A stretch of DNA of 23,762 bases from an uncultured Helicobacteraceae bacterium (GCA_947311765.1 CAMZLS010000081.1:1-23762); one strand, 5' to 3'; shown: positions 564 to 22,109, counted from the stretch's first letter. A program made the numbers and translations. The notes: a model not told the origin generated them from the letters alone.

Positions 564-572
564 AACTTCTGT

Positions 573-598
573 CTTACATGTAAAGATTTACATGTAAG
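573..598. repeat. Inverted pair of the palindrome TTACATGTAA (CTTACATGTAAAGATTTACATGTAAG), between the MFS stop and the PP2C-kinase start; candidate terminator or operator
   Basis: Seen directly. Two exact TTACATGTAA copies at 574-583 and 588-597 form a 12-bp-arm hairpin with a 2-nt loop. It lies 10 nt after the stop at 563 and 33 nt before the ATG at 631. Confidence 0.7.
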
Positions 599-630
599 GA
601 TTTTGTTGTAATAATATTCAAAGGTTCTTT

Positions 631-2268: not shown

Positions 2269-2720
2269 CCTAAAATTTTATGATTACTATCTATATTTGT
2301 TATTTTAAGGTGATAATTGATACCCTTTTTAAAAGAAGAGCCTATTAAAGAAATTATCAAAAATAAAAATCAAATACCTACTGAAATTGATTACGACACA
2401 CCATCTTTCACAAGATATAAAACTAAATTTCCGAAAGATTGGTTGTCACTAAAAGAAACTTAGGTTAGTTTTGGCATGGGACGAATTAAGACAAGAGGAC
2501 TTGCTTGATGATTGTTTTTTATTATTAAAATTTGACAATGAAGAAGAATTTTTTTTGATGTAAAACCATATGTTTACATTCAATATAAAAATCCAAATAG
2601 CCACAGAGACACTCTCTTGCCAAAACCTACCTCTAAATCTCTTTTTTTATTGCTATAACCACAATATTGTAGTATATAATTATGGTTGCATCAGTAATTT
2701 TTCATTTAAATCCAAATAAA

Positions 2721-2750
2721 CTTGACAGATGAATTTTAAGTATTATACTA
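2721..2750 (+). promoter_or_regulatory. Possible sigma70-like promoter for the desaturase gene (TTGACA ... TATAAT-like)
   Basis: TTGACA at 2721-2726 is followed by AT-rich -10-like hexamers (TATACT/TATAAT) about 17-21 nt downstream. The region is very AT-rich, so many alternatives exist. Confidence 0.25.
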
Positions 2751-2794
2751 TATAATTATCCAATTATTAACAAAGCATTATATAAAGGATAGCG

Positions 2795-3949
2795 ATGGCA
2801 CATACATATACACCGTATGAAGATATAGACAAGGGGAAACTTCAAGAAGATATTGAAGCTATAAAAAAGAATTTAGACCCTGTAAATTGGGAAGATTTTC
2901 AACATTTACTCAAACTTGAACGCTGGGGAAGAGGCGCTACTTTGAGTGGATTTTTTATCATTTTTGTTATTAGCTTTTTAGAAATAAATAGTTTTGTATT
3001 TTGGTCTTTTGCTCTTATTGCAGCTATACTTATTGGTGTTGGAAATGTGGCAAGATGGGCAAATGTTACACACCCTATCTTGCATGGTGCTTACGATAAG
3101 GTGCCAAATATCCCTCACAAATATACAAAAGCGGGTTATGCGCGTGGTTGGAGACGTTTTATCCACTGGTCTGATTGGATTAAGCCTGAGGCTTGGGAAT
3201 ATGAGCACAATATCATGCACCACTACCATTTAGGTGAATTAGATGACCCTGATAATGTGGAAGCAAACCTCCAATGGCTTGTAAAATCTAAAATCCCAAT
3301 GTGGCTACGCTACGCTATCGTTTATGCTTTTGCAACAACATGGAAATATACTTATTACGCCCCAAATACTTTACGAATTTTAGAAAATAAAGAGCGTCGC
3401 AAACGCAAAGAGCCAGAAATATATGATTATGAGATGAGCCCTTTTACAAAAAATGGTTTAGAATTGTGGAAAAATTACTATCTTCCTTATGGAATTATCC
3501 AGTTTGTTATTCTTCCCTTTCTCTTCTTTCCACTTGGAATGGAAGCGGTACTCAACGCTTTTATTATCTTAGTCATGGCAGAAGTTTTTGCCAATCTTCA
3601 CTCCTTTTTAGTGATTGTTCCTAACCACTCTGCTGGAGATATCTATATGTTTAATGAACCACATAAATCTCAAGGTGAATTTTACCTCCGTCAAATTATG
3701 GGAAGCGTAAACTACAACACAGGAACTGACCTTATCGACTTTGCGCATGGCTTTTTAAACTATCAAATAGAGCATCACCTCTTCCCAAATATGCCACACA
3801 GCTTTTATCAAAAAATGCAACCTATCGTAAAAAATATTTGTAAAGAGCACAATCTTGAATACCGCCAAGAGAGCGTTTGGAGACGAATATACTTATCTAT
3901 CGAACTGATGGTTGGAAACTCAAAAGCATTGCGAGTAAATGGTGTCTAG
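2795..3949 (+). CDS. Membrane fatty-acid desaturase family protein (di-iron, His-box)
   Basis: Three His boxes are present (HGAYDK region, HNIMHHYH, QIEHHLFP). Multiple TM segments. The QIEHH third box is typical of front-end or sphingolipid-type desaturases. SD AAAGGAT precedes the ATG. Confidence 0.85.
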   Translation: MAHTYTPYEDIDKGKLQEDIEAIKKNLDPVNWEDFQHLLKLERWGRGATLSGFFIIFVISFLEINSFVFWSFALIAAILIGVGNVARWANVTHPILHGAYDKVPNIPHKYTKAGYARGWRRFIHWSDWIKPEAWEYEHNIMHHYHLGELDDPDNVEANLQWLVKSKIPMWLRYAIVYAFATTWKYTYYAPNTLRILENKERRKRKEPEIYDYEMSPFTKNGLELWKNYYLPYGIIQFVILPFLFFPLGMEAVLNAFIILVMAEVFANLHSFLVIVPNHSAGDIYMFNEPHKSQGEFYLRQIMGSVNYNTGTDLIDFAHGFLNYQIEHHLFPNMPHSFYQKMQPIVKNICKEHNLEYRQESVWRRIYLSIELMVGNSKALRVNGV

Positions 3950-4805
3950 TCAATTAGAGATGTTTCATAGTTTTTGTACGCAAAATCAGCCTAAAACTAT
4001 GCAAGAGGCCTTTGAAAGCTTCGCTGTTTTTGGCGGTATGGGTGTCAAGATAGATACCTCTAAACCTCTTTTGTACTCTATCAAAAAACATATCTTAGAT
4101 GAGTATCATTTTATTCATGGTAATATCATTGAAAAAACGCGAGGTGATAGCGTCTATCACTCTGTTTTAACGGGTCTTGCTATTGGTGATGCTCAAGCAC
4201 ACACTGCTCTTAAGCGTGCCAAACTCTCTGCGGATGATGGCAAACATGTTATCAATCAACTCTGTCATTTTGGACTTTTAGAGCGTGAAGTTTCACGAAA
4301 AATTTCACACTCTTGGGTTGAAGAGAATACTGTTTCTGATAAACTCCATTTTGTTAGCCCTTTTATGCGTTTTTGGTTTGGATTTGTTTCGCCACTTTTT
4401 AAGGGAATAGCTGAGGGAGATTATGAGGAGTTTGAAAAACGCTTTGAAAATCGAAAACAAGAGTTTATGGAACAAGCCTTTATACTATTATCACAAGACT
4501 TTATAAGAGAAAACTTCACAGACGATCCCATTGTCGAGATGGGAAGCTATTGGGATAAAAATATAGAGATAGATATCTTTGCCAAAACTACATCTGGCAA
4601 AATTATCGTAGGTTCTTGCAAATATACAAACTCTAAAATCAAAAAAAATCTTCTTAATAAACTCAAAGAAGATGCCTTACATGTAAAGATGGATGCTGAT
4701 ATCTTTATTTTAATATCAAAACAAGGCTTTTCTAATGAAGTAAAATTACTAAAAAGCGAAAGTCTTAAACTTTTTACTTTAAGAAACTTTAGAACTTCTC
4801 TGTAA
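3939..4805 (+). CDS. DUF234-like (restriction-endonuclease-fold) domain protein; resembles the C-terminal two thirds of archaeal-ATPase/DUF234 proteins but lacks a P-loop
   Basis: C-terminal segment SYWDKNIEIDIFAKTTSGKIIVGSCKY matches the DUF234 core pattern (EIDIva...gEcK). No Walker A motif. Overlaps the desaturase stop by 11 nt. An alternative ATG exists at 3960. Confidence 0.4.
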   Translation: MVSSQLEMFHSFCTQNQPKTMQEAFESFAVFGGMGVKIDTSKPLLYSIKKHILDEYHFIHGNIIEKTRGDSVYHSVLTGLAIGDAQAHTALKRAKLSADDGKHVINQLCHFGLLEREVSRKISHSWVEENTVSDKLHFVSPFMRFWFGFVSPLFKGIAEGDYEEFEKRFENRKQEFMEQAFILLSQDFIRENFTDDPIVEMGSYWDKNIEIDIFAKTTSGKIIVGSCKYTNSKIKKNLLNKLKEDALHVKMDADIFILISKQGFSNEVKLLKSESLKLFTLRNFRTSL

Positions 4806-4995
4806 CTACACTAGCAAATCCCTATGAATTTAAATATTTCAAGAAATAACTTTCTTGGCACTTATCTCTTTATTTGCCACTCTTTTTGGCTACAATACTA
4901 CCTAAAAAGAGTGAGGTACTTTTCTATGCCAAAATGGATACGCATAAGCGTTGGGTTTTTACTGCTTTATAGCGCACTGCTTATTACTGCTTGCG

Positions 4996-5874
4996 ATGGG
5001 ATTCGTCATGCCCTCTAAAAAAGAGTTTACAAGCGCTTCTCGTTACACTCCTGATAAGCAGAAAAAAAAGTTTGTCACTGCTACGCCTGCTTTAAGTGGG
5101 GTTTTGCTTCTGCTTGTCGGGGTGAATTATCTCTCTTTAAGTGTTCAGGCTTTGGCAAAGGCTGAGAGTTTTTACTTTATAAGCACCTTAGCGATTTTTG
5201 CCACCTATGTGCTTGCTTTTGTTCTGCTAAGACGTGGCTTGGCGCTTGAGAAGATTTATAATGACTCGAAATATGCTAAAGCACCAAAATATCCCCTTAA
5301 AACCATAGCTGGCTCACTTCTTGCTCTCTCTACGGTCTATAGCGCTAGCTTTGGTGAATATTCTCTTTTTCCTGCTTTAATGCTTGGATTGAGTGTGCTT
5401 TTGGGTTGGTATCTTTATTATGGTTTTGATCCGCGTGAAGATAAGATTGATGGGTATGAGACCTCAAAATCTGCAGAACGGATTATGAAACTCTTAATTC
5501 AGGCAAGAGAAGATATTGACGCTATCAAAAAAAATGCAACAGAGTTAGAGGGCGGAGACATTCAAGATGCGATAAATACTACCGCCTTAGCCTTTGAAAA
5601 GATGGTTAAACATATCGAAGAGGAGCCTGATGATTATGATAGGGCTCGAAAATATCTTGTCAGCTATCTTGGTGAAGTCAGACAGATGTGTGAAACCTTT
5701 GTCAAACTAGACAAGCGAGGCAAGTCAGAGAGTATGAAAACATCTTTTTTAGAGACCTTACATGTAAGCATTGAAAATCTCGATACACAGTACGAGAAGC
5801 TTTTAGATGAGGATATGGTGAGCTTGGATATCAAGCTTTCGGTGATGAAAAAACGACTACAAAATGAGGAGTAG
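4996..5874 (+). CDS. Membrane protein with N-terminal TM helices and a C-terminal coiled-coil domain; XpaC-like (5-bromo-4-chloroindolyl phosphate hydrolysis protein family), tentative
   Basis: The ORF is open from a TTG at 4951. The first ATG is 4996 and the next is 5008 (MPSKKEF). About 4 hydrophobic helices are followed by a charged helical C-terminus. It sits immediately 5' of a TelA-like gene, as in Bacillus xpaC-yaaN. The family call is from memory of that architecture. Confidence 0.4.
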   Translation: MGFVMPSKKEFTSASRYTPDKQKKKFVTATPALSGVLLLLVGVNYLSLSVQALAKAESFYFISTLAIFATYVLAFVLLRRGLALEKIYNDSKYAKAPKYPLKTIAGSLLALSTVYSASFGEYSLFPALMLGLSVLLGWYLYYGFDPREDKIDGYETSKSAERIMKLLIQAREDIDAIKKNATELEGGDIQDAINTTALAFEKMVKHIEEEPDDYDRARKYLVSYLGEVRQMCETFVKLDKRGKSESMKTSFLETLHVSIENLDTQYEKLLDEDMVSLDIKLSVMKKRLQNEE

Positions 5875-6979: not shown

Positions 6980-6980
6980 C

Positions 6981-8090: not shown

Positions 8091-8092
8091 TT

Positions 8093-9154
8093 ATGAAAAA
8101 AGAGTATATATTTCCTTGCGAGCAGTGTGGCGCGAAACTCAACTACTCCGTAGCTACTGGTGAGCTTACTTGCCCTTACTGTTCGCATGTAAATAAGATA
8201 GAGAGAGCTTTTTCTCAAGTTGTAGAGAAAGATTATGAAAAAGCACTCCAAGAGCTAAAAAATTTCAGTGAACATCCAAGTGAGATAACAAGCTCAAAAT
8301 GCCCGACTTGTGCGGCAACTTTTGAGTTAAGTGAAGATATCCACGCCTCAGAGTGCCCTTTTTGTGGCAGTGCAGTTGTCAATGAAGTCTCACGCTACAG
8401 ACCGATAAAACCCCAAGCACTGCTCCCTTTTGCCATAGATAAGAAAAAAGCAAAAATACTTTTCAAAGAGTGGCTCAAAGGGCGATGGTTTGCTCCAAAT
8501 AAACTCAAAGAGTATAGTGCAGAAGATAGTACCTTAGAGGGAATATTTGTGCCGTACTGGACCTATGATGCAGATACTCATAGCCGTTATAGTGGGCGTA
8601 GGGGTGATGCTTACTATGTGAGTGAGAGCTATACAGAAAATGGTGTAAGCAAAACAAGACGAGTTGAAAAGATACGCTGGAGTAGTGTCAGCGGAGAGTT
8701 AAGCAAAAATTTTGATGATGTTTTAGTGGTTGCTACGAATTCACAAACAAATGCTTCGTATAATTGGGATTTGAAAAACTTAGTCGATTATGATGAAGGA
8801 TTTTTAAGTGGCTATGAGAGTGAGGTCTATTCGGTAGAGCTAGATGATGGACTTAAAAGTGCTAAAACAACTATGACATATCACATACGAGAGGCAGTCA
8901 AACGCCAAATAGGAGGCGATAGACAAGAGATAAGCTCATTAAATAGCGACTTTTTCAATATCACTTTCAAGCATATACTCCTCCCAGTCTATGCCTCTGC
9001 TTTCAAGTTTGATGGAAAAGTATATAGCTATATCATCAATGGAAGAAATGGAGAGATAAGCGGAGAGAGACCATATAGTGTTATTAAGATAACTTTTGCG
9101 GTTCTTAGTGCTTTAGTTATAGGTGGTGCGATTTACTATTTTTCAAATCAATAA
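8093..9154 (+). CDS. Double zinc-ribbon protein with a C-terminal transmembrane anchor (YdjG-like partner of SPFH proteins, tentative)
   Basis: Two CxxC...CxxC ribbons (CEQCGAKL..CPYCSH; CPTCAATF..CPFCGS), a central domain, and the C-terminal helix VIKITFAVLSALVIGGAIYYF. Start is 3 nt after the upstream stop. Confidence 0.5.
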   Translation: MKKEYIFPCEQCGAKLNYSVATGELTCPYCSHVNKIERAFSQVVEKDYEKALQELKNFSEHPSEITSSKCPTCAATFELSEDIHASECPFCGSAVVNEVSRYRPIKPQALLPFAIDKKKAKILFKEWLKGRWFAPNKLKEYSAEDSTLEGIFVPYWTYDADTHSRYSGRRGDAYYVSESYTENGVSKTRRVEKIRWSSVSGELSKNFDDVLVVATNSQTNASYNWDLKNLVDYDEGFLSGYESEVYSVELDDGLKSAKTTMTYHIREAVKRQIGGDRQEISSLNSDFFNITFKHILLPVYASAFKFDGKVYSYIINGRNGEISGERPYSVIKITFAVLSALVIGGAIYYFSNQ

Positions 9155-10530
9155 TAAATCTTCATCTTTTCAGGATATGTTATCGTATAAATAACATTCA
9201 TCTTTTTACTTGTATTGCCTTTGATATCGGCTATGATGGTAAGCTTACCCGTTTTTGTATCATACTTATAAGGAAGATCTAGTTTTTCAAGGCTTACTTC
9301 TATCTCTTCTTGTGTTGAGAGTGGGATGCGTTCTGTGATGATAACTTTTTTATCTTTATCAGAACGATTTGTGAGAGTGAGTCTAAAGCCCTCTTTTTTA
9401 ACTCTTGCAGAGCTAAAGATACTCTTGTCTTGAGAAAACTCATGGATAGTCTCTTTTTTTGTTTCCATATCATAATCTATAGCAACATTGAGTAAAATCT
9501 TTGTACCATCCTTGCGAATTGGGGCATTTTCTATGAGTTGTCCTTTGTGACGTACCTTCCACTGTCGTGACTCTATGGTCTGTTTTGGAGTGAAACTTGC
9601 TGTTTTATATACATTGCTACTATTATAAGGGTGCCAAGTGAGTGTAGTGTTGATAGTGAGCTTTTCGCTATCAAGAGGAAGTTTTTTCTCTTTAGCATCT
9701 GAAGCGAGAGTAAGATTTTTGAGGTGGTAGCTTCGCGTCTCTAGTTTTTTTACATGGTAGCTATTTTCAGCAACAGGAGCAGGAGCCGCTGCCATTAGCA
9801 CCATATCTTGTCGCACAGCTCTTTTGGCTTTCATCTGTGCTTGTGCAATACGAATTTTTCTAGGATAAAACTGTGTTGGTGCGCTGATATAGCCTGCTGG
9901 TTTTGCAAAAAGTCTCACTTCTTCTGCCTCTATATCTATGCCAGAGGCATTGCTTAAAAGGAGTGAGTGTTGCAGTTTTGAGCTGTCCATATCCAAAAGA
10001 TATTCACTATGGAAGTAGAGTCCGCGGTTGATAGTGAGTTGTACTTTGGATTTTGGTATATCTGCATAAAAGAGAGGCTCTTTGCTTGGAGCATGTTTGG
10101 AAAACAGAGCACTTGCATTTTGTATCTCTTTTTGAAGATTTTGACTCTCTTGGGCTATTTTTGCCATACGTGAAGCGATTGTGCTTGCTGTTTTTATGGT
10201 ATTTTGAGCATCTATGTTTGTATCTGGAGCGTATTGGGAGATGATGGTATCTAAGATATTTTGCTCTTTTTTGAGTCTATCAAGCCTTACATGTAAGCCT
10301 TGTAGATGAGTGTATTGTGTGCATAGGCTACTCTTTGTCTTACAACTATTTCTTCTTATAAGCCCCAAGGAACCTTCTGAATTTTTAGCTTTTAAGTTTG
10401 TATTAAAACCTATAAAACTCTCTTTGGGTTCGTAGGTATAAAAACTTCTATCAGAGTAGATATCAAGAGATGAAGCAAGGAGTGCGATTTGACTTAGTGA
10501 TATGATGATAACTGAGAGGCGAAGTGACAT
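9148..10530 (-). CDS. Secreted/periplasmic protein of unknown function with a signal peptide and coiled coil; possibly a DUF4139/DUF4140 (MuiA-like) family member
   Basis: N-terminus MSLRLSVIIISLSQIALLASS is a signal peptide. 460 aa with long helical Q/K-rich stretches followed by a beta-rich C-terminal half. The family guess is weak. Convergent 7-nt overlap with the upstream + gene. Confidence 0.55.
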   Translation of the reverse strand: MSLRLSVIIISLSQIALLASSLDIYSDRSFYTYEPKESFIGFNTNLKAKNSEGSLGLIRRNSCKTKSSLCTQYTHLQGLHVRLDRLKKEQNILDTIISQYAPDTNIDAQNTIKTASTIASRMAKIAQESQNLQKEIQNASALFSKHAPSKEPLFYADIPKSKVQLTINRGLYFHSEYLLDMDSSKLQHSLLLSNASGIDIEAEEVRLFAKPAGYISAPTQFYPRKIRIAQAQMKAKRAVRQDMVLMAAAPAPVAENSYHVKKLETRSYHLKNLTLASDAKEKKLPLDSEKLTINTTLTWHPYNSSNVYKTASFTPKQTIESRQWKVRHKGQLIENAPIRKDGTKILLNVAIDYDMETKKETIHEFSQDKSIFSSARVKKEGFRLTLTNRSDKDKKVIITERIPLSTQEEIEVSLEKLDLPYKYDTKTGKLTIIADIKGNTSKKMNVIYTITYPEKMKIYY

Positions 10531-10582
10531 TATAATTTCCTTTAGAGTATAATACCCAATTATTTAATTTATAGGCAAGAAT

Positions 10583-12409
10583 ATGACAAAATTTCTACTC
10601 TACTCTTTTGTGCTCTTTTTTACATTTTTACAAACTCCACTCACCGCTGATGATATCTTTGGTGATTTTATCGCTAAACAGATAGAGATAGAGACACAGT
10701 TTTTAGATAAAAATATGACTTCTAGTAGTGTAGAAAAATTAATGAATGAGCAAAACCGTGATTATCGTACCTTTTTCTTGGCGCTTATCTCAAAAGATAT
10801 GGATGTTTTCAAAGGGACAAAAGATTATAAGCTTGCAGTCTCTACCCTAGAGAGACGCATGAAGATAAATAAACAACGCGGTAACACAAGAGCTTACCTT
10901 CGAGATAAGCTAAAACGAAATACTTATCTTCTTCTACAAAACATCAAAGAGACCTTTGAAGCAGTAAAAACTGCAACAAAGAGCAATACAAAAAAAGAGT
11001 TTGATAAGCGTATAGATTCCATTGTAGCCTCTCGCCATGAAAAAGATGAGACAATAGATATAAAAAAATATAATTTTCTTAAGCAAAGTGGTGATACAAG
11101 TGAAATGACACAAAAGATTCGTGCCAATTTTATCGAAAATCAGGCAGTTTTAAATATTCACAATATGATAAGTTCAGAGCTTGTACGCTTTAAATCACCT
11201 CTGTATGATGCTGTAAAACTCTCCTCTTTTGGCTTGGTATCGCTAGGGTATAAAATTAACACAAGCACATATGGAAGTAAACTCAATACTTATATCTCTT
11301 GGAGTGGTTTAGATAGTGCAAAAATTATTTTTATATTTTTCTTTTTACTTGTCTTGTATTTCGCTAGAAAATTGGTAGTTTTCCTCTCTGGTAAATTTTT
11401 GAAAAACTTTTTTGAAAAATCTGATGATATTAGTTTTATTATAAATAGTATCTCTGGTGTGGTAAGTCTTATTGTTATCGTTGTGAGTATTGATGTTGTG
11501 GTGAAGATATATGCAGGTTTTATGGATGCACCGTGGATACGTTTGAGTTTTAGTATCGCTTATACTGTCTTGATTACCTATCTTGTGCAAAAACTTATCA
11601 GCGCGGTAGCAACACTCAAGATAGAGCAGTTTAGGCGTTCAGAGTATCTGCGTCATGAGGTTATCAACCTTGCTATGCGTGTGCTCAATATTTTTATCTA
11701 TATCATCGGTTTAGTTGTGGTTTTAAATCTTTTTGATGTTGATTTAAGTGCTATCCTTTCTGGTCTTGGAATTGGTGGATTTGCCGTTGCTTTTGCGGCC
11801 AAAGATACTATTGCAAATTTCTTCGGTTCTGTCTCTATTTTGATGGGTGACCTTTTTGAACAAGGTGATTGGATAGCGGTAGATGGCTATGAGGGAACAG
11901 TCGTTGAAATTGGCTTACGCGCAACAACTATACGAACCTTTGACAATGCTATGATTGCCATTCCTAACTTTAAACTTGTGGATAATGGACTGAGAAATTG
12001 GAGCAAACGCCTTCTTGGTCGCCGTATCAAAATGCACATTGGTGTGACTTATGAGTCAGATTTTAAGGATATAAAAAAAGCTATTGATGAGATACGCCAG
12101 ATGTTAATCGAGCATAAAGATATAGCAAACTCAAATCAAGAAACACTCGCCCCAGAACGTTACGCCCGCTTAGTCTCAAGAGAAGACTATAGAGGTGTCA
12201 AGCGTACTATGCTTGTCTATATGGATAAATTTTCAGATTCAAGTATAGATATCTTGATTTACTGCTACTCTCGCTCTGTTGTCTGGAATGAGTGGTTAGC
12301 AACCAAAGAGGATGTAATGTATAAAATCGCAGAGATACTAGAGAAAAACAATCTCTCCTTTGCTTATCCTGCTCTAGCTATTCATCAAGTACAAGAGCAG
12401 TCTTTTTAA
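10583..12409 (+). CDS. mscS: Mechanosensitive ion channel, MscS family (large N-terminal periplasmic domain type)
   Basis: Signal-like N-terminus, multiple TM helices, and the MscS pore/beta-domain signature (GDWIAVDGYEGTVVEIGLRATTIRTFDNAMIAIPNFKLVDNGLRNWSK). Confidence 0.9.
   Translation: MTKFLLYSFVLFFTFLQTPLTADDIFGDFIAKQIEIETQFLDKNMTSSSVEKLMNEQNRDYRTFFLALISKDMDVFKGTKDYKLAVSTLERRMKINKQRGNTRAYLRDKLKRNTYLLLQNIKETFEAVKTATKSNTKKEFDKRIDSIVASRHEKDETIDIKKYNFLKQSGDTSEMTQKIRANFIENQAVLNIHNMISSELVRFKSPLYDAVKLSSFGLVSLGYKINTSTYGSKLNTYISWSGLDSAKIIFIFFFLLVLYFARKLVVFLSGKFLKNFFEKSDDISFIINSISGVVSLIVIVVSIDVVVKIYAGFMDAPWIRLSFSIAYTVLITYLVQKLISAVATLKIEQFRRSEYLRHEVINLAMRVLNIFIYIIGLVVVLNLFDVDLSAILSGLGIGGFAVAFAAKDTIANFFGSVSILMGDLFEQGDWIAVDGYEGTVVEIGLRATTIRTFDNAMIAIPNFKLVDNGLRNWSKRLLGRRIKMHIGVTYESDFKDIKKAIDEIRQMLIEHKDIANSNQETLAPERYARLVSREDYRGVKRTMLVYMDKFSDSSIDILIYCYSRSVVWNEWLATKEDVMYKIAEILEKNNLSFAYPALAIHQVQEQSF
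12329..12396 (+). repeat. Direct repeat copy 1 (inside the 3' end of mscS), 68 bp
   Basis: Identical except for 1 nt to 15537..15604. Confidence 0.85.
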
Positions 12410-12754
12410 ATAAATTTGTGTTGAATGCCTTTTTTATTCGACCATATTACATATACAACACCTAGCACCATACTTATTGCTATAAAAATTTCTAATAATT
12501 ATTTACCCATTTCTTGCCCCTTTTTATAGGGTTAAGCAAAAAGTGTTCTTGATACTGGAATGGGCTAGTAGATTTAATTATAGAATACACAATAAATAAA
12601 CTTAAGGCATTTTTTAAATCTTAAAAATGGCTATAAAGAAAACTAGCTACTTCTGGTTATTGAATTTGCAAGTGGCTCTTTAGTAATTAATAATATTAGT
12701 TATGTTAAAGTATTTATGTGATTTTATATCATAATAAATATATAAGGGGTTAAA

Positions 12755-14729
12755 ATGAAATCTACTAAAATGGGGGGGGGCACTTTTTGTCCTATTGATA
12801 TCATTGCAGTGTAATGCGATAGCTGATAACCAAAATGTACTTAATGCAAAAGCAAAAACTTTTGAGAATGTATCCTTAGATATCGCACAAAGAGATGTTT
12901 TTTTATTAGAGTTAAATGAAAAATATAAAGTTAAGGATGTTGCCAATAAAGTGTCCACAAAATTACTAAAAGTATTGTTGGATAATAAAACAATAAATAT
13001 AGCAGTTGACCTTTTTATTAGTGATGATGTAAATGATTTTACATATACAAAAAATAACAAATATATTAACGCACAAGCAACATATACTTTTAATTTAGAT
13101 ACTAACAAATCGTCATATACTTTAAATGGTGAAAAAAGTATTGATGATTCTATTGCTCAGTATATGGTTGCACAAGAGTTCTTTTTTGCAGAAAAAAAGA
13201 GACTTCGAGAAGAGAAGCGTCAGAAAAATATTAAAAAAATTACTTTAATTTTAAAAAATAATAAGAAAATAAACGCTTTATTAAGTTCTACGTCTGATTA
13301 TGTGAGCATTAATCTTGATAAACATGAACTAGCAAAGCTTCTTAAAGAGGCTGGAGATGCAATTAACGCATATGATATCCATAGTAAATTAACACCATCA
13401 AATACTGCTGCAGAGTGGGATAATAGTCGTAATGGATATTTACAAGGAGTTTCTATAACACAAATGCATGGAGTATGGAATGATTACTTTCCAAATACTA
13501 GAGGTGAAAATATTGCTATTTATTACTCAGATGCACATTGCCCCAATAATGGAAATGATTTGTATTATGGCTATGTTGCAACAACAGGAGCTTGCCAAGA
13601 AGTAGGAAACCTTAACGATGAGGACACAGGTGCAGGGTATCATACACGAATTATAACTGGAATTCTTAGTACAGTTGCTAATGAAGTGAATTTGCTTTGT
13701 AATGATCATGCTAGAGATAGCAGTGATGTAGATAGCCGTTTACCAACTGCTATGGGAAATATAAATATTGAAACATATAGTTTAAATAACTATAATGATA
13801 ATACCTTATCATACAAAAATATTGATGTTGCATTTGATCACCATGCATTTAATAATCGTACAATTCCAGTATTTGTATCAGCTGGTAATAAATTGGATGA
13901 ACTGAATCCAGACAATCACGTTTTATCTCCAGCAAAAGCTTTTAATATTACTACTGTAGGTTCGTACGGGAGAGATGCTGTAGCTGGTACTTTAAGTTGG
14001 TCGAACTTTTCAAGCAATGTTAATCCTGAGACTATAATTGGAAATAGGACTATTCAAAAACCTGAAGTGTCTGGACCAGGAGAACATTTCCATTGTGCTG
14101 ATATTGTAGGTGATGATAGTTGTCATGAACTCTTTAATGAAGATTCTGGAACAAGTTTTGCAACTCCATGGATTGCGGCTATGGCTGCAGATGCTATGTC
14201 TCGTGGGTCATACTGGAGAAGTAGTGCAGCTATGGTCAAAGCTTTAGTTATTTCTGGTGCTTCAGACCCAATTGCAGGTACAAGAGATGAAGTAGGTGAA
14301 GGTGGGGTTGATCTTTTTACAATGACTTGGCAAAATACTAATAGTGGTTATTGGTATGATGCAAATCCTTCAGAGCCATTTAGTGGTACTAATCCAAGCC
14401 AGTTTGATTATAATAACAACTGCTTTACTAATTGGCAAACTCAATTATATGATGGAAGAGATCAACGGATAGTTATTTCTTGGCTTAATGATATTACTAA
14501 TGCCACAACATTGAGTAATATACCAAATAGCTATAGCTTAGAACTGATTAACTCAAATGGTTCTGTTGTTGAAAGCACTTCAGAAGATACACAAGGGTAC
14601 CAAATTATAAATACTAATCAGCCCGCAGGACTTTATACTGTTAGGGTGTGTAAGCTTAGACAGAATTCCTCTCAACGTTTTGATATGGGATTTTCAGTAT
14701 CACAAAGGACAACTCAATGGTGGGATTAA
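12755..14729 (+). CDS. Subtilisin-like (S8 family) serine peptidase with a signal peptide. It is frameshifted at a G9 tract in this sequence (phase OFF); it is in frame with G8 or G11. The in-frame portion begins at TTG 12795
   Basis: SD AAGGGG (12744-12749) is 5 nt upstream of ATG 12755. With 9 G the reading MKSTKMGGGTFCPIDIIAV stops. Removing one G gives MKSTKMGGALFVLLISLQCNA|IADNQ..., a signal peptide continuous with the 644-aa ORF. S8 motifs: FVSAGNKLD (oxyanion Asn) and DSGTSFATPWIAAMAA (catalytic Ser). Confidence 0.7.
12772..12780 (+). repeat. Homopolymeric G9 tract (candidate slipped-strand phase-variation switch) in the 5' coding region of the S8 protease
   Basis: Seen directly. Nine consecutive G in a genome segment of about 33% GC. 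Confidence 0.9.
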
Positions 14730-15508
14730 TAAATTTTACAAGTAAGACACTTTTAAGTATTTTACTTTTTATAATTATTTTTTTAGTTTCTGGATGCGGT
14801 GAAGATACTAAGTCTTCTTGTTCAAATAACTCTAATCTTAGTCGTAATGATGCGGGATACTATGGAGAAGATGTATATTTTGGTGGTCATAAGATTTTGG
14901 GAATATGGAGAACTGGTTTGAACTACCAAGAAAATAATTTTTTTAATATAGATGGGACTATGATTTATGAACGTGGAAGAATATATCGAAAGGTTTATCC
15001 ACAATATGGTGTAAGCGAGGATGGTAATGTGCTAAATATTATTGATGAAAATAATAATACTGAACATTATATATATATAAAATCAAATACTAACTGCTTT
15101 AGTGTTCTTAAAAAATCAACACAAAAAGAAATACAGTTTTGTAAATACGAGACGTTAAGTTTTATTGATAACTCATTGAGAAAAAATACTGAACTTGGTT
15201 TTTTTGGTTACGCAACACTATTTGGGTATGAACGTATAGTAGGGTCATGGAAATATATCCCAATTAATGGTGCATATACAGAAATTTTTGATTTTAAAGA
15301 AGATGGTAGTGGCTTTAAAAGGGTAGTGACAATATATGGTGGAAAGGAAGAGCATATTCCATTTCATTATGGAGTTAGTCAAGATGGTAAAGAGCTAGAT
15401 CTTCAGATGGCAGATGATTCTATAGAAATATATCAACTTGTTAGCACATTTGAGGGTTGTTATAAAATGATACATCAAGATGTAGAATATAAATTATGCA
15501 AACCCTGA
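14717..15508 (+). CDS. Lipoprotein of unknown function
   Basis: Signal peptide plus lipobox (LLFIIIFLVSGC). The 13-nt overlap with the protease stop suggests translational coupling. No recognisable domain. Confidence 0.6.
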   Translation: MVGLINFTSKTLLSILLFIIIFLVSGCGEDTKSSCSNNSNLSRNDAGYYGEDVYFGGHKILGIWRTGLNYQENNFFNIDGTMIYERGRIYRKVYPQYGVSEDGNVLNIIDENNNTEHYIYIKSNTNCFSVLKKSTQKEIQFCKYETLSFIDNSLRKNTELGFFGYATLFGYERIVGSWKYIPINGAYTEIFDFKEDGSGFKRVVTIYGGKEEHIPFHYGVSQDGKELDLQMADDSIEIYQLVSTFEGCYKMIHQDVEYKLCKP

Positions 15509-15536
15509 TTTTTTCAGAGTTTATCTTAAAGCTATT

Positions 15537-15604
15537 GCAGAGATACTAGAGAAAAACAATCTCTCCTTCGCTTATCCTGCTCTAGCTATTCATCAAGTAC
15601 AAGA
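15537..15604 (+). repeat. Direct repeat copy 2 (displaced mscS 3' end remnant), 68 bp
   Basis: Matches 12329..12396 with one mismatch (T/C). In-frame remnant ...AIHQVQE then a stop. Confidence 0.85.
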
Positions 15605-15621
15605 ATAATTTAACAAACATT

Positions 15622-15661
15622 TACCTCTAAGGAGTACACTTCGCTTATCAATTTAGAGGTA
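15622..15661 (+). promoter_or_regulatory. Hairpin (9-bp stem TACCTCTAA / TTAGAGGTA, 22-nt loop) immediately upstream of moxR; the 3' arm contains the moxR SD (AGAGGT)
   Basis: The inverted repeat is seen directly. A perfect AAGGAG sits in the loop, 30 nt from the ATG. Function is unknown; it could be a terminator, an occluded RBS, or an att-core remnant. Confidence 0.35.
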
Positions 15662-15665
15662 TTAC

Positions 15666-17443: not shown

Positions 17444-17887
17444 ATGGATATTTCAAAATTACCAAAATTACCACTCTCTAAGCCACTTCCTAGTGCTCCT
17501 GATATTCCTTTGCATGATATCAAGCCACTTGTAGAGATAAGTGATTATTCACTCTATTATCTCTCGGCTCTTATTGCTCTAGGTCTTATTATTCTTTTAG
17601 CCCTTGCATTTTTCGCTTGGAGGTATTGGAGTCAAAAAAATCGTTACACCACTCGAAAAGAGCACTTCGAGCGTTTACAAAATATAGATTTTTCTCATCC
17701 CAAAAATGCAGCCTATGCTATCACAAAATATGGCTATACCTTTTCTCAAGATGGAGAGCGTCAGCATGAGACATATGAGAATCTTTTATCACGCTTAGCC
17801 CCTTACAAATATAAAAAATCAGTTGATGCTATAGACGATGAGGCTAAGGGCTATTTTAATATTTATCTGGAGATGATTGATGTTTGA
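17444..17887 (+). CDS. Small single-pass membrane protein (position equivalent to the DUF4381-type gene of Bat operons)
   Basis: Pro-rich N-terminus, then the TM helix YYLSALIALGLIILLALAFFAW. Begins 1 nt after the upstream stop. Confidence 0.5.
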   Translation: MDISKLPKLPLSKPLPSAPDIPLHDIKPLVEISDYSLYYLSALIALGLIILLALAFFAWRYWSQKNRYTTRKEHFERLQNIDFSHPKNAAYAITKYGYTFSQDGERQHETYENLLSRLAPYKYKKSVDAIDDEAKGYFNIYLEMIDV

Positions 17888-18806
17888 TGGTCTCTATTTT
17901 GAATTTCCAAAGATAGTGTTTGTTATTGGGTTTTTTATCGCTTGTGAGAGTCTATGTAAGATGCGTTTAAGCTCTATCTACTTCCCGCATACCACACAGT
18001 TTACAAAAAAAACTATGGCACAGTCAAAGCTTCTTTTTATACTCAAGTGGCTCGGAATTGTTATGATGATTCTAGCCTTAATGTCTCCAGTTAAAGATGA
18101 AGAGGTGATGCTTGACCCACAAGAGGGTTATGATATTGCCTTGGTTCTTGATGTGAGTCAGTCTATGAGTGCGCAAGGGTTTGATCCGAATAATCCTCGG
18201 GCAAATCGTTTTGATGTGGTGAAGTCAATTGTAGGAGATTTTATCAAAGAGCGAAACAACGATAACCTTGGTTTGGTTGTGTTTGGACTGTACTCTTTTG
18301 TAGCTTCACCTTTAACGTATGATCAAAAGATTTTAAGTCGCATTCTTAAGCAACTCTATATAGGAATGGCAGGAAGATACACAGCACTTTATGAAGCTAT
18401 TGCCCAGAGCGTCAATCTCTTAAAAGATTCTAAGGCTAAAAGTAAAATCGCTATCTTACTTACTGATGGACATAATACCTCAGGGGGGAAAATTCCACTT
18501 GATATTGCTATAGAACTTGCAAAAAAAGAGGGTGTAAAAATTTATCCAATCGGCATAGGTGCAAGAGGTGAATATAATGCTGAGGTTCTAAACACCATAG
18601 CCAAAGAGACGGGTGGAGTAGCTTTTGGTGCACATAGTGCAGAGCAGTTAAAAGAGGTATATCTTAAAATTGATGAGCTTGAAAAATCAGAGATAGAGCG
18701 CGAGAGTTATAACTACTTGCATTACTATTACTTATATCCGCTCTTTTTAGGATTTCTATCACTTTTGGCTTTTGTTTATCTACGAAATAAGAAGGGGTGG
18801 TTATGA
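17877..18806 (+). CDS. batA: VWA domain membrane protein, BatA-like
   Basis: N-terminal TM helices and a VWA MIDAS motif (ALVLDVSQSMS ... LLTDGHNTSGG). C-terminal TM. 11-nt overlap with the upstream gene. Confidence 0.8.
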   Translation: MMFDGLYFEFPKIVFVIGFFIACESLCKMRLSSIYFPHTTQFTKKTMAQSKLLFILKWLGIVMMILALMSPVKDEEVMLDPQEGYDIALVLDVSQSMSAQGFDPNNPRANRFDVVKSIVGDFIKERNNDNLGLVVFGLYSFVASPLTYDQKILSRILKQLYIGMAGRYTALYEAIAQSVNLLKDSKAKSKIAILLTDGHNTSGGKIPLDIAIELAKKEGVKIYPIGIGARGEYNAEVLNTIAKETGGVAFGAHSAEQLKEVYLKIDELEKSEIERESYNYLHYYYLYPLFLGFLSLLAFVYLRNKKGWL

Positions 18807-20662
18807 GTTTTTTACATCCTGAGTTTCTCTATCTGATGCTACCAGCATTGACAATTTTGTTCTTTTTCCTTATTTCAGGAGAAGAAGAACACAATAAATA
18901 CTTCTCTCAAGAAGTTTTACAAAAGCTACAAGTTCATAGCAATACCTTAACTATGCGTGCGAGAAATGCCCTGTTTTTTATTATGTTTGCTCTGATAATT
19001 ATCGCCTTAGCGCAACCTGTTATCGAAGATGGCAAGGTGAAAGTCAAGGCAAAAAGTTCAGATATTATGGTTGCCTTGGATATTTCTGACTCTATGTTGG
19101 CACAAGATGTCTATCCTACACGACTTGAGGCAGCAAAGAAAAAGGTGCTTGACCTGCTTAAGTCTTCACCTCAAGAGCGTATAGGTGTGATGGCATTTGC
19201 AAAAGATGCCTATCTTGTTTCACCTTTGAGTTTCGATCATAGAGCGGTGCGTTTTTTACTTAAACAAGTCAGTACAGGCTCTATCACAGGAAAAGGAACA
19301 GACTTTATAAGACTGCTCACTTCTGCAAAAGGGGCACTCAGTGAAGATGATAATCGTTATCTGCTTATTTTAACTGATGGTGCGGATAAGCAGGATTTTT
19401 CTGAAGAGATTGCACTAGCAAAAAAAGAGGGAATCCGTATCTTTATCTTAGGTGTAGGAACGCCTCAAGGCGCGCCAATTAAGCTCAAAGATGGTTTATT
19501 TATTAAGCAGCATGACAAGATTATCGTAAGTAAGCTCAATAGTGCAATTAAGGAGTTAGCCCTACAAACTGGCGGTGCATATATCGAGTCAGTAACAAGC
19601 TCTGATGATATAAAAGCTATGCTTCGTGAGATTCAAGCCAAGACTGAAAAGCGTGAATTAAAAGAGGAAGAAGTGACACTATATATCGCTCTATTTTATT
19701 ATCCATTGGGTTTAGCTATGTTCTTGTTTTTGATAGCTACTTCATCTATGAGCAAGCGTGAAAGGCTTGTTATGCCACATGCTTTTGTCTTGTTGCTTTT
19801 GGGCTTACATGTAAGCGATGCTCAGGCTGGATTATTGGATTTTCAAATGCTAGAAAATGCCAAGACGAGTTATGAAAGTGAAGATTTTAATAAGAGTTCT
19901 AAGCTCTATGGCGAGTATCTTCAGTCACATAATACCCCTCAAAGTCACTACAACTTAGCAAATGCAGATTATCAAAGGGGTAACTACAAAGCTGCGGCTG
20001 TGGGGTATGAGCAGGTGCATAGTAAAGATAAAGAGTTAGAGTTTAAAGCCTTGCATAATCTTGGAAACTCTTGCTACATGCAAGGTGACCTAGAATCTTT
20101 AAAAAAAGCAGTTGAGTCGTATAAAAAAGCATTAAAAATACACGATGACTCTGACACTAAAGATAACATGAAAAAAGCTCAAAAGAAATTAGAAAAAATA
20201 AAAAAAGAAGAGCAATATAAAGATGATAAAAATGGAGATAAAAATCTAAAAAAAGACAAAAATGGTGACAAAAAGAAATCTGAAAAAGATAAAAATGGTG
20301 ACCAAAAAGAGAAAGATCAGAAAAATCAAGATCAAAAAGATGGTGAAAAACAAGAAGATAAAAAGTCCAAATCTGATGAGCAAAAAGATAAGGGCAAAAA
20401 AGAGTCAAATCAGAACAAAGAACAAAAAGATAAAGAACAAGAGAAGAGGAAAGAGCAAGAGAAAGCTTCTCAAAAATCTGAAGAAAAGAAAAAAGAGCAA
20501 GCTAAACAAGCACAAGCTGCTCAGCAAGAAGACCCCGAAAAAATGAGTGAGCGAGAAGCCCAAAAATGGTTAAAGATGCTCAATGCAAAACCAAGAGAGC
20601 ATCTGTACCAGCTCAATAATGAACAAAGAAAAAAGAGAGATGAAAATGAAAAGCCTTGGTAA
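18797..20662 (+). CDS. batB: VWA + TPR domain membrane protein (BatB/BatC-like fusion) with a long K/D/E-rich low-complexity C-terminal tail
   Basis: TM N-terminus, MIDAS motif (MVALDISDSMLA ... ILTDGADKQD), a second TM, and TPR-like repeats (YNLANADYQRGNYKAAAVGYEQ; LHNLGNSCYMQGDLESLKKAVESYKKA). About 180 aa of KDKNGDK/KEQEK repeats follow. Confidence 0.8.
   Translation: MVMSFLHPEFLYLMLPALTILFFFLISGEEEHNKYFSQEVLQKLQVHSNTLTMRARNALFFIMFALIIIALAQPVIEDGKVKVKAKSSDIMVALDISDSMLAQDVYPTRLEAAKKKVLDLLKSSPQERIGVMAFAKDAYLVSPLSFDHRAVRFLLKQVSTGSITGKGTDFIRLLTSAKGALSEDDNRYLLILTDGADKQDFSEEIALAKKEGIRIFILGVGTPQGAPIKLKDGLFIKQHDKIIVSKLNSAIKELALQTGGAYIESVTSSDDIKAMLREIQAKTEKRELKEEEVTLYIALFYYPLGLAMFLFLIATSSMSKRERLVMPHAFVLLLLGLHVSDAQAGLLDFQMLENAKTSYESEDFNKSSKLYGEYLQSHNTPQSHYNLANADYQRGNYKAAAVGYEQVHSKDKELEFKALHNLGNSCYMQGDLESLKKAVESYKKALKIHDDSDTKDNMKKAQKKLEKIKKEEQYKDDKNGDKNLKKDKNGDKKKSEKDKNGDQKEKDQKNQDQKDGEKQEDKKSKSDEQKDKGKKESNQNKEQKDKEQEKRKEQEKASQKSEEKKKEQAKQAQAAQQEDPEKMSEREAQKWLKMLNAKPREHLYQLNNEQRKKRDENEKPW
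20224..20302 (+). repeat. Imperfect tandem repeat (about 31-33 nt period; GAYAAAAATGGWGAY core) encoding DKNGDK units in the BatB/C-like tail
   Basis: Three copies of GATAAAAATGGAGAT / GACAAAAATGGTGAC / GATAAAAATGGTGAC, at 20224, 20255 and 20288. Confidence 0.6.
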
Positions 20663-22109
20663 AATATTAATTTTAATTGCAGCAGTCTATTCTAGCGTAC
20701 AAGCTGGCGTAAGAGCCGAGCTGAGTCGCGACACTGTAAGCTTAGGTGAGACAGTAATCCTGCGCTTACATGTAGATGCCAACAGAGTCGAAGAGCCTGT
20801 TGTCTCAAAACTGTGTGGAGTAAAGATACTTTCACGTTCACATAGCGCCAATATGCAAATAGTAAATGGAAACTACACAAAAACGCAAGTTTTTAGCTAC
20901 AGTTTTAACCCTATGGCTACATGTAAGATTGAGCCTATCAAAGTGAAGATAGATGGAAAAGATGTTTTTACTCAAGAGTTATCACTCACAGTAAAACCGA
21001 TGAGTATCTCTAAGGATTCTCCTTTTGTCTTAACTATGGAGAGTGAAAAATCGAGCGTTTATGTTGGAGAGCCTTTTAAGCTTACAATAAAACTCAAGCA
21101 ACGCCATAATGCCCAAGCTGTAGATTCAAAATTTGCAGCACCTCTTTTGAAAAACTTTTGGATAAAAGCACAAGAACAAGGCAAGCGTTATGAAGAGGGT
21201 GATTATAGTGTGACAGAAGTGACTTATATTGTTGCCGCGCAAAAGAGTGGGGTGCAACATATTGGGCGTGCCCAGTTGCAAGTTGCACAGCGTGCTCACT
21301 CACAAGATGCTTGGGGTCAATGGTTTCCGCGACTACAATGGCGAAGCTTTTTTACAAATGAACTTGATATAGAGGCGAAGGCACTCCCAAGAGGTGTCAA
21401 TCTAGTAGGTGATTTTAAAATAGCAGCACTCTTAGACAAGAATGAAACAGCTCCAAATGATGCGGTAAATCTAACACTTCAGCTTTCAGGTAGTGGAAAT
21501 TTTGAAGATGTTGGCTCCTTGAAGCCTTTTATTAATGGTGTCAATATTTTTGAAGAAGATGCCGTGATTCAAGGCGCTATAAAAGATGGAACTTATAGTG
21601 GTATTTGGCAACAAAAAATGGCATTTGTATCAGAACATGACTATACAATACCACCTATACAAGTCAAATATTTTAACCCTAAAACAGAAAAAATTGTCAC
21701 TATCAGTACACAAGCCTTACATGTAAAGATAAAAGGTAAAGCAAGAAAAAAAGAAAAAGCTCTTAAAATTGAACGAAGTGATGAGCAAAATTCTTTTGTA
21801 AAAGACGAAGCAAAATCAGTCTCTTTAGGACCTAGCTATCTTTGGCTTATCGGCTTAATTGTTGGGATGCTGATTGGTGTATTTATAATGCTTATTCCAT
21901 GGAAACGCTTTGTGAAAGAGGAGGATACTTTCAAAAGTGTCAATATTCGTGATGAAAAATCGGTATTGAACTTTCTTCTCAATTTTATAAATGATAGAGA
22001 AGTTTTCGAGATGGTAAAACTTCTTGAAGAAAAAATTTATGAGGGAAAAAGTATTACAATTGATAAAAAGCAACTTAAAATATTATTAAAGCGCTTACAT
22101 GTAAAGTGA
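20640..22109 (+). CDS. batD: BatD-like protein (signal peptide, large periplasmic domain, C-terminal TM plus cytoplasmic tail)
   Basis: The ORF is open from 20583, but the signal peptide MKMKSLGKILILIAAVYSSVQA begins at ATG 20640/20646, after AAGAGAGA. C-terminal TM LWLIGLIVGMLIGVFIMLIPW. It sits in the Bat operon context; the family call is by architecture and position. Confidence 0.6.
   Translation: MKMKSLGKILILIAAVYSSVQAGVRAELSRDTVSLGETVILRLHVDANRVEEPVVSKLCGVKILSRSHSANMQIVNGNYTKTQVFSYSFNPMATCKIEPIKVKIDGKDVFTQELSLTVKPMSISKDSPFVLTMESEKSSVYVGEPFKLTIKLKQRHNAQAVDSKFAAPLLKNFWIKAQEQGKRYEEGDYSVTEVTYIVAAQKSGVQHIGRAQLQVAQRAHSQDAWGQWFPRLQWRSFFTNELDIEAKALPRGVNLVGDFKIAALLDKNETAPNDAVNLTLQLSGSGNFEDVGSLKPFINGVNIFEEDAVIQGAIKDGTYSGIWQQKMAFVSEHDYTIPPIQVKYFNPKTEKIVTISTQALHVKIKGKARKKEKALKIERSDEQNSFVKDEAKSVSLGPSYLWLIGLIVGMLIGVFIMLIPWKRFVKEEDTFKSVNIRDEKSVLNFLLNFINDREVFEMVKLLEEKIYEGKSITIDKKQLKILLKRLHVK

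Follow-up and report, generated by a model that had tools for sequence, protein, structure and literature searches.

Hyper-abundant genomic words are rare, and their mechanism is understood in two families, the Neisseriaceae and the Pasteurellaceae. The DNA uptake sequence (DUS) of the former (GCCGTCTGAA core) and the uptake signal sequence (USS) of the latter (AAGTGCGGT core) occur in hundreds to thousands of copies per genome, one every 1 to 3 kb, and are reportedly maintained, under Redfield's molecular-drive model, by drive and not by a benefit of each site. Campylobacter jejuni discriminates by RAATTY methylation instead. Uptake sequences also occur in terminator stems as inverted pairs, as with the Neisseria DUS (PMC1852404). 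HIP1 (GCGATCGC) and the other highly iterated palindrome (HIP) words of cyanobacteria are short perfect palindromes whose flanks are sometimes extended palindromically; HIP words are over-represented 15- to 300-fold or more in coding and non-coding DNA and are made by substitutions (PMC4390886, PMC5861425), and HIP1 sites are conserved at orthologous positions beyond control words and codon preference (PMC5861425). HIP1 function has been open for 30 years, and preprints now report that HIP1 enhances natural transformation, an effect that depends on methylation (10.1101/2024.09.10.611283; 10.64898/2026.06.24.733823). Here we examine a palindromic 10-mer, TTACATGTAA, in a 23,762-bp stretch of DNA from an uncultured Helicobacteraceae bacterium (GCA_947311765.1 CAMZLS010000081.1:1-23762), hereafter the window. 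The window is one complete contig of a metagenome-assembled genome (MAG) of a Sulfurimonadaceae-like member of the Campylobacterota, and the density of the word on a genome scale was judged through relatives. Its closest analogue is HIP1, which a preliminary description of the window did not name, and an independent palindromic case of this kind extends the HIP phenomenon beyond the cyanobacteria.

Enrichment and form of the palindrome

Eight exact copies of TTACATGTAA are present in the 23.8 kb of the window. Dinucleotide shuffles contained 0.03 copies on average and one at most, with 0 of 100 shuffles reaching eight, and Markov models of orders 1 to 3 predicted 0.02 to 0.05 copies whether or not the copies were masked, which corresponds to an over-representation of ~150- to 350-fold. 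A synonymous-codon shuffle that kept the proteins, including their seven Leu-His-Val (LHV) tripeptides, yielded a mean of 0.30 copies and a maximum of 4 in 2,000 trials, compared with six observed in coding sequence. The word was both the top 10-mer and the top palindromic 10-mer of the window, while TACATGTA, its strict 8-bp core, occurred 11 times and ranked first among palindromic 8-mers and third among all 8-mers. The copies and the hairpin formed by the first two are as follows.

574..583, no strand: exact copy 1, intergenic, 10 bp beyond the stop codon that ends the MFS transporter gene (9-563); supplies the hairpin's 5' arm
588..597, no strand: exact copy 2, intergenic; 3' arm of the hairpin
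572..609, plus strand: terminator-like hairpin from copies 1 and 2, with a 12-bp stem, loop AGAU and tail AUUUUGUUGU
4677..4686, plus strand: exact copy 3, in the DUF234 protein gene (3939-4805), read LHV (..DALHVKM..)
5758..5767, plus strand: exact copy 4, in the gene of a Halogen_Hydrol-family protein (4951-5874), in the LHV frame (..ETLHVSI..); with flanks, CCTTACATGTAAGC
10287..10296, minus strand: exact copy 5, in the minus-strand DUF4139 gene (9148-10530), read LHV (..QGLHVRL..), with an orthologous site in locus L261
14736: 9/10 copy TTACAAGTAA
15662..15671, plus strand: 9/10 copy TTACATGTAT; its ATG serves as the start codon of MoxR
19803..19816, plus strand: exact copy 6 within a 14-bp perfect palindrome GCTTACATGTAAGC, in BatB (18797-20662), read LHV (..LGLHVSD..)
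20766..20775, plus strand: 9/10 copy TTACATGTAG, in BatD, read LHV (..LRLHVDA..)
20917..20926, plus strand: 9/10 copy CTACATGTAA, in BatD, read Ala-Thr-Cys-Lys
21717..21726, plus strand: exact copy 7, in BatD, read LHV (..QALHVKI..)
22095..22104, plus strand: exact copy 8, at BatD's very C-terminal end (..KRLHVK*)

The preliminary description had placed the exact copies at 574, 588, 4677, 5758, 10287, 19805, 21717 and 22095, and all eight were recovered there, as was a 16-mer, CAAGCCTTACATGTAA, shared by positions 10281 and 21711. Its enrichment also stood, but its size did not: 80-fold on an expectation of 0.1 copies was an underestimate. Its near copy at 15662 was correctly placed, those given at 20767 and 20923 lie at 20766 and 20917, and a fourth, at 14736, had been missed. 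The 16-bp sequence at 19802-19817, GGCTTACATGTAAGCG, had been called a perfect palindrome and is an imperfect one; the perfect palindrome is the 14-mer within it.

The extended consensus of the word is (S)(Y)TTACATGTAA(R)(S), i.e., (G/C)(C/T)TTACATGTAA(A/G)(G/C), spanning 10 to 14 bp; the degenerate pattern was written as SCTTACATGTAAGS, and a further form beside the 10-mer is SYTTACATGTAARS. A+T makes up 80% of the 10-mer. Flank information was confined to position -1 (C more often than T) and position -2 (C or G), and bases farther out were random. This absence of information beyond ±2 bp indicates that the palindrome is independent and belongs to no larger repeat or insertion sequence (IS); had it done so, the preliminary description would have been refuted. 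Dispersed repeats, such as miniature inverted-repeat transposable elements (MITEs), repetitive extragenic palindromes or IS, are conserved beyond a short word and usually intergenic, whereas ~75% of the copies were intragenic and in frame; nor were copies concentrated in promoters, as operators of a transcription factor would be. Across 237 kb of motif-rich sequence, which held 77 exact copies, one-off variants at positions 2 to 5 occurred at the level of the controls. The outermost base alone was relaxed, with CTACATGTAA/TTACATGTAG found 15 times in motif-rich sequence and not once in controls. Judged by these variant counts, the word is defined as sharply as the target of a protein that binds or modifies DNA sequence-specifically.

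Neighbouring copies formed a second pattern. Seven pairs were 14 to 28 bp apart, where 1.15 were expected, and none were spaced 28 to 123 bp. The intergenic pair in the window had been described as inverted; it does form a hairpin, through two copies of a palindrome that lie 14 bp apart. This hairpin has a folding energy of -14.5 kcal/mol (z = -2.77) and a 4-nt loop, and a terminator scan found it to be the sole terminator-like site in its interval. Copy 2 (588..597) also shares bases with the -35 element of a promoter-like sequence (TTTACA and AATAAT, separated by 17 nt) that lies upstream of the PP2C/kinase gene. Hairpin-forming pairs were also found in loci L196 (after aclA), L251, L260, L261, L268 and L217. 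All pairs fold, at -12.7 to -21.2 kcal/mol, and the majority lie just past gene ends, the pair in L217 being located between two genes.

Distribution, reading frame and conservation of sites

Relatives were examined as loci (numbered with L) collected by protein homology to MoxR or BatD of the window. The first two below come from 37 Campylobacterota MoxR loci and the other six carry BatD homologues.

L003: G+C content 0.38; 4 exact copies (plus 4 of CTTACATGTAG) in 16.4 kb
L001: G+C content 0.44; 3 copies in 12.8 kb
L260: BatD 82% identical; G+C content 0.34; 4 copies in 11.6 kb
L261: BatD 65% identical; G+C content 0.34; 8 copies in 21.5 kb
L262 (GCA_050292295.1): BatD 56% identical; G+C content 0.42; 7 copies in 21.5 kb
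L264: BatD 56% identical; G+C content 0.52; 7 copies in 21.5 kb, 0.009 expected
L268: BatD 50% identical; G+C content 0.55; 10 copies in 21.5 kb, 0.005 expected
L269: BatD 44% identical; G+C content 0.46; 0 copies in 11.6 kb

Together, seven of these (L001, L003, L260, L261, L262, L264 and L268), chosen by homology and not by motif, hold 43 copies in 126.7 kb, or 0.34 per kb, which equals the density of the window and is ~270 times the expectation. The clade thus carries about one copy per 3 kb across a span of 33 to 55% G+C, and by extrapolation ~700 to 850 copies per genome of 2 to 2.5 Mb. The remaining Campylobacterota MoxR loci, Sulfurimonas and Sulfurovum included, had one copy in 399 kb, and distant phyla one in 700 kb. 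A scan of JGI metagenomes with the 14-mer GCTTACATGTAAGC matched at least 120 loci, and at least 25 loci among the matches listed held further copies, up to seven in 11 to 12 kb. One motif-rich metagenomic contig was assigned by AclA, 98% identical to that of a MAG, to the Sulfurimonadaceae/'Thiovulaceae'; another was assigned to the Campylobacterales by polyphosphate kinase; and a third encoded a protein segment 83% identical to a Sulfurovum MAG. The same density was seen in independent assemblies from NCBI, JGI and Logan. The trait is real, old and widespread, yet patchy, in the Campylobacterales.

Viruses in IMG/VR were not enriched for the word: the 51 loci matched by the 14-mer scan, 446 kb in all, held no further copy. 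The sole viral contig with three copies of GCTTACATGTAAGC, 3300020042_006565 (55 kb; L274, L305 and L316), may be prophage DNA, or host DNA of a motif-rich lineage that was misclassified; all other viral hits were single copies. A scan of viral contigs for motif pairs gave mostly tight arrays of three sites in unrelated phages (G+C content 0.44 to 0.52). The arrays noted in L085, L100, L104, L106, L108, L109, L123 and L125 (G+C contents of 0.40 to 0.52) have three copies of TTACATGTAA 10 to 64 bp apart (mostly 20 to 40 bp); they resemble phage-repressor operators, seem unrelated to the genomic word, and were judged irrelevant. Left out of the statistics was L215 3502-3860, from a coral metagenome (Ga0126338), where four copies recur with an exact period of 116 bp and identical flanks, probably a eukaryotic tandem satellite repeat unrelated to the bacterial word.

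Because the word is a palindrome, its three reading frames do not differ between the strands: xCT-TAC-ATG-TAA, with an internal stop; CTT-ACA-TGT-AAG, Leu-Thr-Cys-Lys (LTCK); and TTA-CAT-GTA-A, Leu-His-Val. Every exact (10/10) coding copy in the window, L001, L003 and L011 was in the LHV frame. For the window, the preliminary description had reported this phase for all six exact coding copies and the near copy at 20766, and had noted that all seven LHV tripeptides come from the motif, both of which are correct. A single codon phase is not a special property of the word: the LHV frame holds nearly all copies in the window's own clade, a few copies in the wider clade read Leu-Thr-Cys, and 22 other motif-rich metagenomic loci had 35 copies read as LHV, 27 as LTCK and 22 non-coding. 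Cysteine accounts for 0.8% of residues in the window, and composition alone would place ~9 of 10 coding copies in the LHV frame. With one frame holding a stop and one requiring the rare Cys, the LHV phase is best seen as a by-product of coding constraint, and not as a clue to mechanism. By approximate gene calls, the word was about twice as dense in non-coding as in coding DNA.

Codon choice within the tripeptide pointed to the DNA. The window has seven LHV tripeptides where 0.84 were expected, each encoded TTA-CAT-GTA, although TTA, CAT and GTA make up 25%, 68% and 30% of their codon families there. Across seven genomes LHV was over-represented 6 to 10 times, and 39 of 42 were coded as TTACATGTA (TTA-CAT-GTA). 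In L264, TTA constitutes 4% of Leu codons, and the probability of TTA-CAT-GTA given LHV is 0.004, yet six of eight LHV tripeptides use it.

Alignments of BatB and BatD revealed how the sites arose. Relatives without the motif vary in the LHV columns (LNI, LDI, LKV, IPI and others), most sites lack an indel, and the orthologous DNA of motif-free genomes matches the word at just 2 to 5 of its 10 bases. Ungapped sites over such unrelated bases indicate that copies were built by several substitutions, some of which changed amino acids, and the copies sit at protein positions that tolerate change. Once present, they persist. Motif sites were conserved at 4 of 4 positions between the window and L261 (76% nucleotide identity; 10.7% of background 10-mers), 4 of 6 between L262 and L264 (65%; 3.8%), 3 of 5 between L261 and L268 (60%; 1.3%) and 2 of 3 between the window and L268 (60%; 1.5%), i.e., 10 to 50 times as often as background 10-mers. 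Between L261 and L268, the TTA codon was conserved in 3 of 5 cases inside the word and 3 of 135 outside it, and GTA in 3 of 5 and 8 of 98. Existing copies are kept at orthologous positions far longer than neighbouring sequence. These results, together with codon choice, support selection or drive that targets the word as DNA, and not the encoded protein, as the preliminary description had supposed.

Individual copies of the window reflect the same pattern. The site of copy 6 is conserved in L260, L261 and L268, and that of copy 7 in L260, L261, L264 and L268, and as a 9/10 copy in L003. The near copy at 20766 is matched by exact copies in L261 and L003, and L260 has an identical 9/10 form there. 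BatD homologues share the Cys that is used by the copy at 20917. The orthologue of copy 8 is followed in L260 and L261 by another copy 15 to 16 bp downstream, which results in a hairpin spanning the BatD stop codon. The membership of the copy at 15662 in the motif family is uncertain; its core, TACATGTAT, is conserved at the corresponding position of L260 (5040) and L261 (4976).

Two further sites touch on conservation in other ways. The intergenic region between the divergent genes for prephenate dehydrogenase and BamA holds one copy in each of L261 (14458), L262 (13267), L264 (13911) and L268 (15315), with adjacent bases (..GTTAnAAAGCCTTGAT) conserved in at least three of the four genomes, which may reflect a regulatory use of the word. 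An 8-bp core that lacks motif-like flanks occurs in L260 (8108), L261 (8042), L262 (8000), L264 (8012) and L268 (8107) as TAT-TAC-ATG-TAY. It encodes Tyr-Tyr-Met-Tyr, which is conserved close to the C-terminal end of BatA; in the window, Leu replaces the Met. This BatA core is a protein-driven coincidence, and counts of the 8-mer core are therefore inflated.

Gene content and other features of the loci

The genes of the window are ordinary chromosomal ones and encode an MFS transporter, PP2C/kinase, desaturase, TelA, SPFH protein, MscS, S8 peptidase, rubrerythrin and Tpx, as well as a MoxR-DUF58-BatA-BatB-BatD operon. None of them is a methyltransferase, restriction enzyme, competence or mobile-element gene, and an Rfam search of the window matched no family. 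The nearest genomes are Sulfurimonadaceae/'Helicobacteraceae' MAGs, with MoxR identity of up to 83%.

A 71-nt direct repeat (97% identical; 12326-12396 and 15534-15604), which duplicates the 3' end of the MscS gene, brackets a 3.2-kb segment of low G+C content (0.31 to 0.32; 12397-15604) that carries the S8 peptidase and a lipoprotein-like gene and no copy of the palindrome. In L261, MoxR comes immediately after the DUF4139 gene, and the S8 peptidase segment is absent. The segment looks like a recent insertion. BatB (18797-20662) has a long, highly charged low-complexity tract rich in Lys, Glu, Asp and Gln in its C-terminal half (residues ~470-600), which accounts for an AT skew of 0.41 at 20 to 21 kb. 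At the edge of L262 (1-733), a phage-integrase gene lies beside a second VWA/Bat-like gene set.

Candidate mechanisms and comparison with known systems

A sharp, perfect palindrome that is usable in both coding frames and in non-coding DNA suggests that duplex DNA is read by a homodimeric protein. Single sites persist although each can add just about one part in several hundred to any genome-wide function, which argues for a restoring drive and not for selection on each site. Two kinds of such drive are known: a bias in the uptake and recombination of tagged DNA, as for DUS and USS and as now proposed for HIP1, and a ratchet of methyl-directed repair. The explanation that we rank first, and put forward tentatively, is that the word may be a HIP1- or DUS-like self-DNA tag kept by biased uptake, recombination or repair, with a dimeric protein as its putative reader. 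Fragments bearing the word, possibly only if methylated at the inner CATG/ACATGT, would be preferentially taken up or recombined during natural transformation. Such a bias would act as a molecular drive, spreading and restoring copies wherever a protein can bear Leu-His-Val or Leu-Thr-Cys-Lys, and neighbouring pairs would have been recruited as terminator hairpins after genes. Its rank derives from the DUS-like terminator pairs, the presence of one word across very different G+C contents, and the recent experiments on HIP1. A stronger claim would make TTACATGTAA the first sequence for DNA uptake or self-recognition found in the Campylobacterota, palindromic, probably methylation-dependent and bound by a dimeric receptor during natural transformation, as an independently evolved functional counterpart of HIP1; it is possible but more doubtful. 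If it were true, drive would be strong enough to hold a word of 80% A+T at ~0.4 per kb in genomes of 55% G+C.

Several observations weigh against a tag for uptake. Classical DUS and USS are asymmetric, and the word of this clade is a perfect palindrome. No reader protein, methyltransferase or competence gene could be tied to the word, and a crude search of the motif-rich loci by catalytic-motif regular expressions and Pfam revealed no credible methyltransferase, the candidates being false hits to MoxR and HPPK. Two cultured strains, Sulfurimonas sp. HSL3-2 and HSL1-2, show no enrichment, with 1 and 0 copies in 21.8 kb each, and their AclA proteins are 95% and 91% identical to that of a motif-rich contig. 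Copies are absent from L269 and from L002, which the MoxR tree places as sister to L003, and for so patchy a spread a transferable determinant, e.g., a methyltransferase, fits at least as well as an uptake receptor. The carriers are MAGs only, these organisms are not known to be naturally transformable, and every count comes from loci of 10 to 24 kb and not from whole genomes. Furthermore, the conservation of sites is also predicted by a ratchet of biased repair and by direct selection on binding sites.

The ratchet, Elhai's model for HIP1, is unlikely on balance but ranks second, favoured because the patchy distribution among close relatives suggests a horizontally mobile methyltransferase. 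An orphan or restriction-modification (R-M) methyltransferase would modify the inner CATG/ACATGT, and methyl-directed or very-short-patch-like repair would turn near-cognate mismatches into the full word, with no signal for uptake; the word might aid strand discrimination in repair or replication, or have no function. The R-M-like inner core of the palindrome, its sharp specificity with the outermost position alone relaxed, and the origin of copies through substitution all agree with this, and cyanobacterial HIP-type words co-occur with cognate methyltransferases (PMC4390886). The crude scan for catalytic motifs again counts against it, as do inner-position variants that are at background level and not depleted, a specificity of 10 to 14 bp that exceeds typical type II targets, and hairpin pairs after genes that the model alone does not explain. 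In the window, L001 and L003, 26 of 27 ACATGT sites lie inside TACATGTA, as the model would have it; this does not extend to the other motif-rich loci, where ACATGT shows no depletion when counted apart from the word (24 in 184 kb, with 14 to 19 in controls), and depletion outside the word (1 of 27) was therefore rejected as a general restriction signature.

Noc, SlmA and MatP sites are intragenic palindromes, and the word could likewise be bound by an abundant dimeric nucleoid-associated or chromosome-organising protein, with selection on how its copies are spread over the chromosome. Its palindromic form, its presence in genes on either strand and its retention over a wide range of G+C would suit such a role, and Xu et al. 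favoured a role in chromosome structure for HIP1 on the basis of periodicity (PMC5861425). We consider this rather improbable for TTACATGTAA, as its 0.34 copies per kb are 10 to 100 times the known site sets of Noc, SlmA, MatP and parS, there is no known candidate protein, and individual sites should turn over under selection of this kind, yet 50 to 100% persist at orthologous positions between genomes with 60 to 76% nucleotide identity. A Chi-like recombination signal, or protection from a nuclease such as AddAB, would act after DNA entry; the density is within the range of Chi sites, and this is one of the two mechanisms proposed for HIP1 (10.1101/2024.09.10.611283). The known Chi sites are asymmetric and strand-skewed, a polarity that a palindrome cannot carry, and this explanation is quite improbable. 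Selection at the level of protein or RNA, for the LHV peptide, for TTA-CAT-GTA as a translational signal, or for a terminator or other RNA hairpin, would account for the uniform LHV reading in the window, L001, L003 and L011 and for the hairpins after genes. It is very improbable, given the LTCK and non-coding copies elsewhere, the variable LHV positions of motif-free homologues, codons fixed against genomic usage and the lack of an Rfam match in the window; most copies, moreover, are single and intragenic, and a lone copy cannot make a stable hairpin. Only the small size of the window speaks for copies that cluster by chance, arise from faulty assembly or belong to some larger dispersed repeat, MITE or IS, and this is hardly credible when no shuffle reached eight copies, independent assemblies agree, flanks are random and copies lie in frame and gap-free against their homologues.

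Whichever process maintains the word, its hosts are ecologically dominant sulfur oxidisers of vents and sediments, and it is relevant to gene flow within such communities and to the boundaries of their species. Motif-rich and motif-free sisters with G+C contents of 33 to 55% constitute a natural comparative design for finding the gene of the reader. Donor DNA tagged with the word and methylated could make these hard-to-manipulate bacteria transformable, as has been done for HIP1, and the word is a compact marker with which to bin contigs of the clade.

Among described systems, type II R-M targets (NlaIII/M.HpyAI CATG, PciI ACATGT and NspI RCATGY) share the palindromic CATG/ACATGT centre of the word, and the Campylobacterota are rich in R-M systems of this type. 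Such targets are normally avoided in the host genome, and ACATGT is indeed ~2.5-fold under-represented in motif-free relatives (17 observed where 46 were expected, and 20 where 46 were expected). The word, unlike them, is enriched 150- to 2,000-fold, with a specificity of 10 to 14 bp.

The preliminary description had likened the word to DUS, and its behaviour bears this out: about one copy per 3 kb restricted to a clade (0.34 per kb in eight genomes versus one in 399 kb), intragenic copies in preferred frames at tolerant protein positions, and terminator-like pairs after genes. It differs in its symmetry, and whereas the uptake specificity of DUS and USS and a receptor (ComP in Neisseria) have been established experimentally, an uptake role for TTACATGTAA is putative. 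As that description had also suggested, our literature search found no uptake sequence or over-represented palindrome described for the Campylobacterota, and nothing on TTACATGTAA, its 12-mer form, ACATGT methylomes in the group, or uptake sequences and competence in Sulfurimonas.

HIP1 is nearer still. Like HIP words, TTACATGTAA is the top palindrome of its length, occurs in all usable frames and in non-coding DNA, and is conserved at orthologous sites, where the tests that were applied to HIP1 (PMC5861425) gave the same result; both words are patchily lost within their clades. The density of 0.34 per kb is at the low end of the HIP1 range (0.3 to 2.7 per kb), and the word has no known cognate methyltransferase. 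Unlike HIP1, it has a longer strict core (8 to 10 bp, with a consensus of 12 to 14 bp), is restricted to two frames because the third holds TAA, and forms terminator-like hairpins where copies are closely paired. With an unrelated, AT-rich sequence and hosts in another phylum, the Campylobacterota, it is not HIP1 proper.

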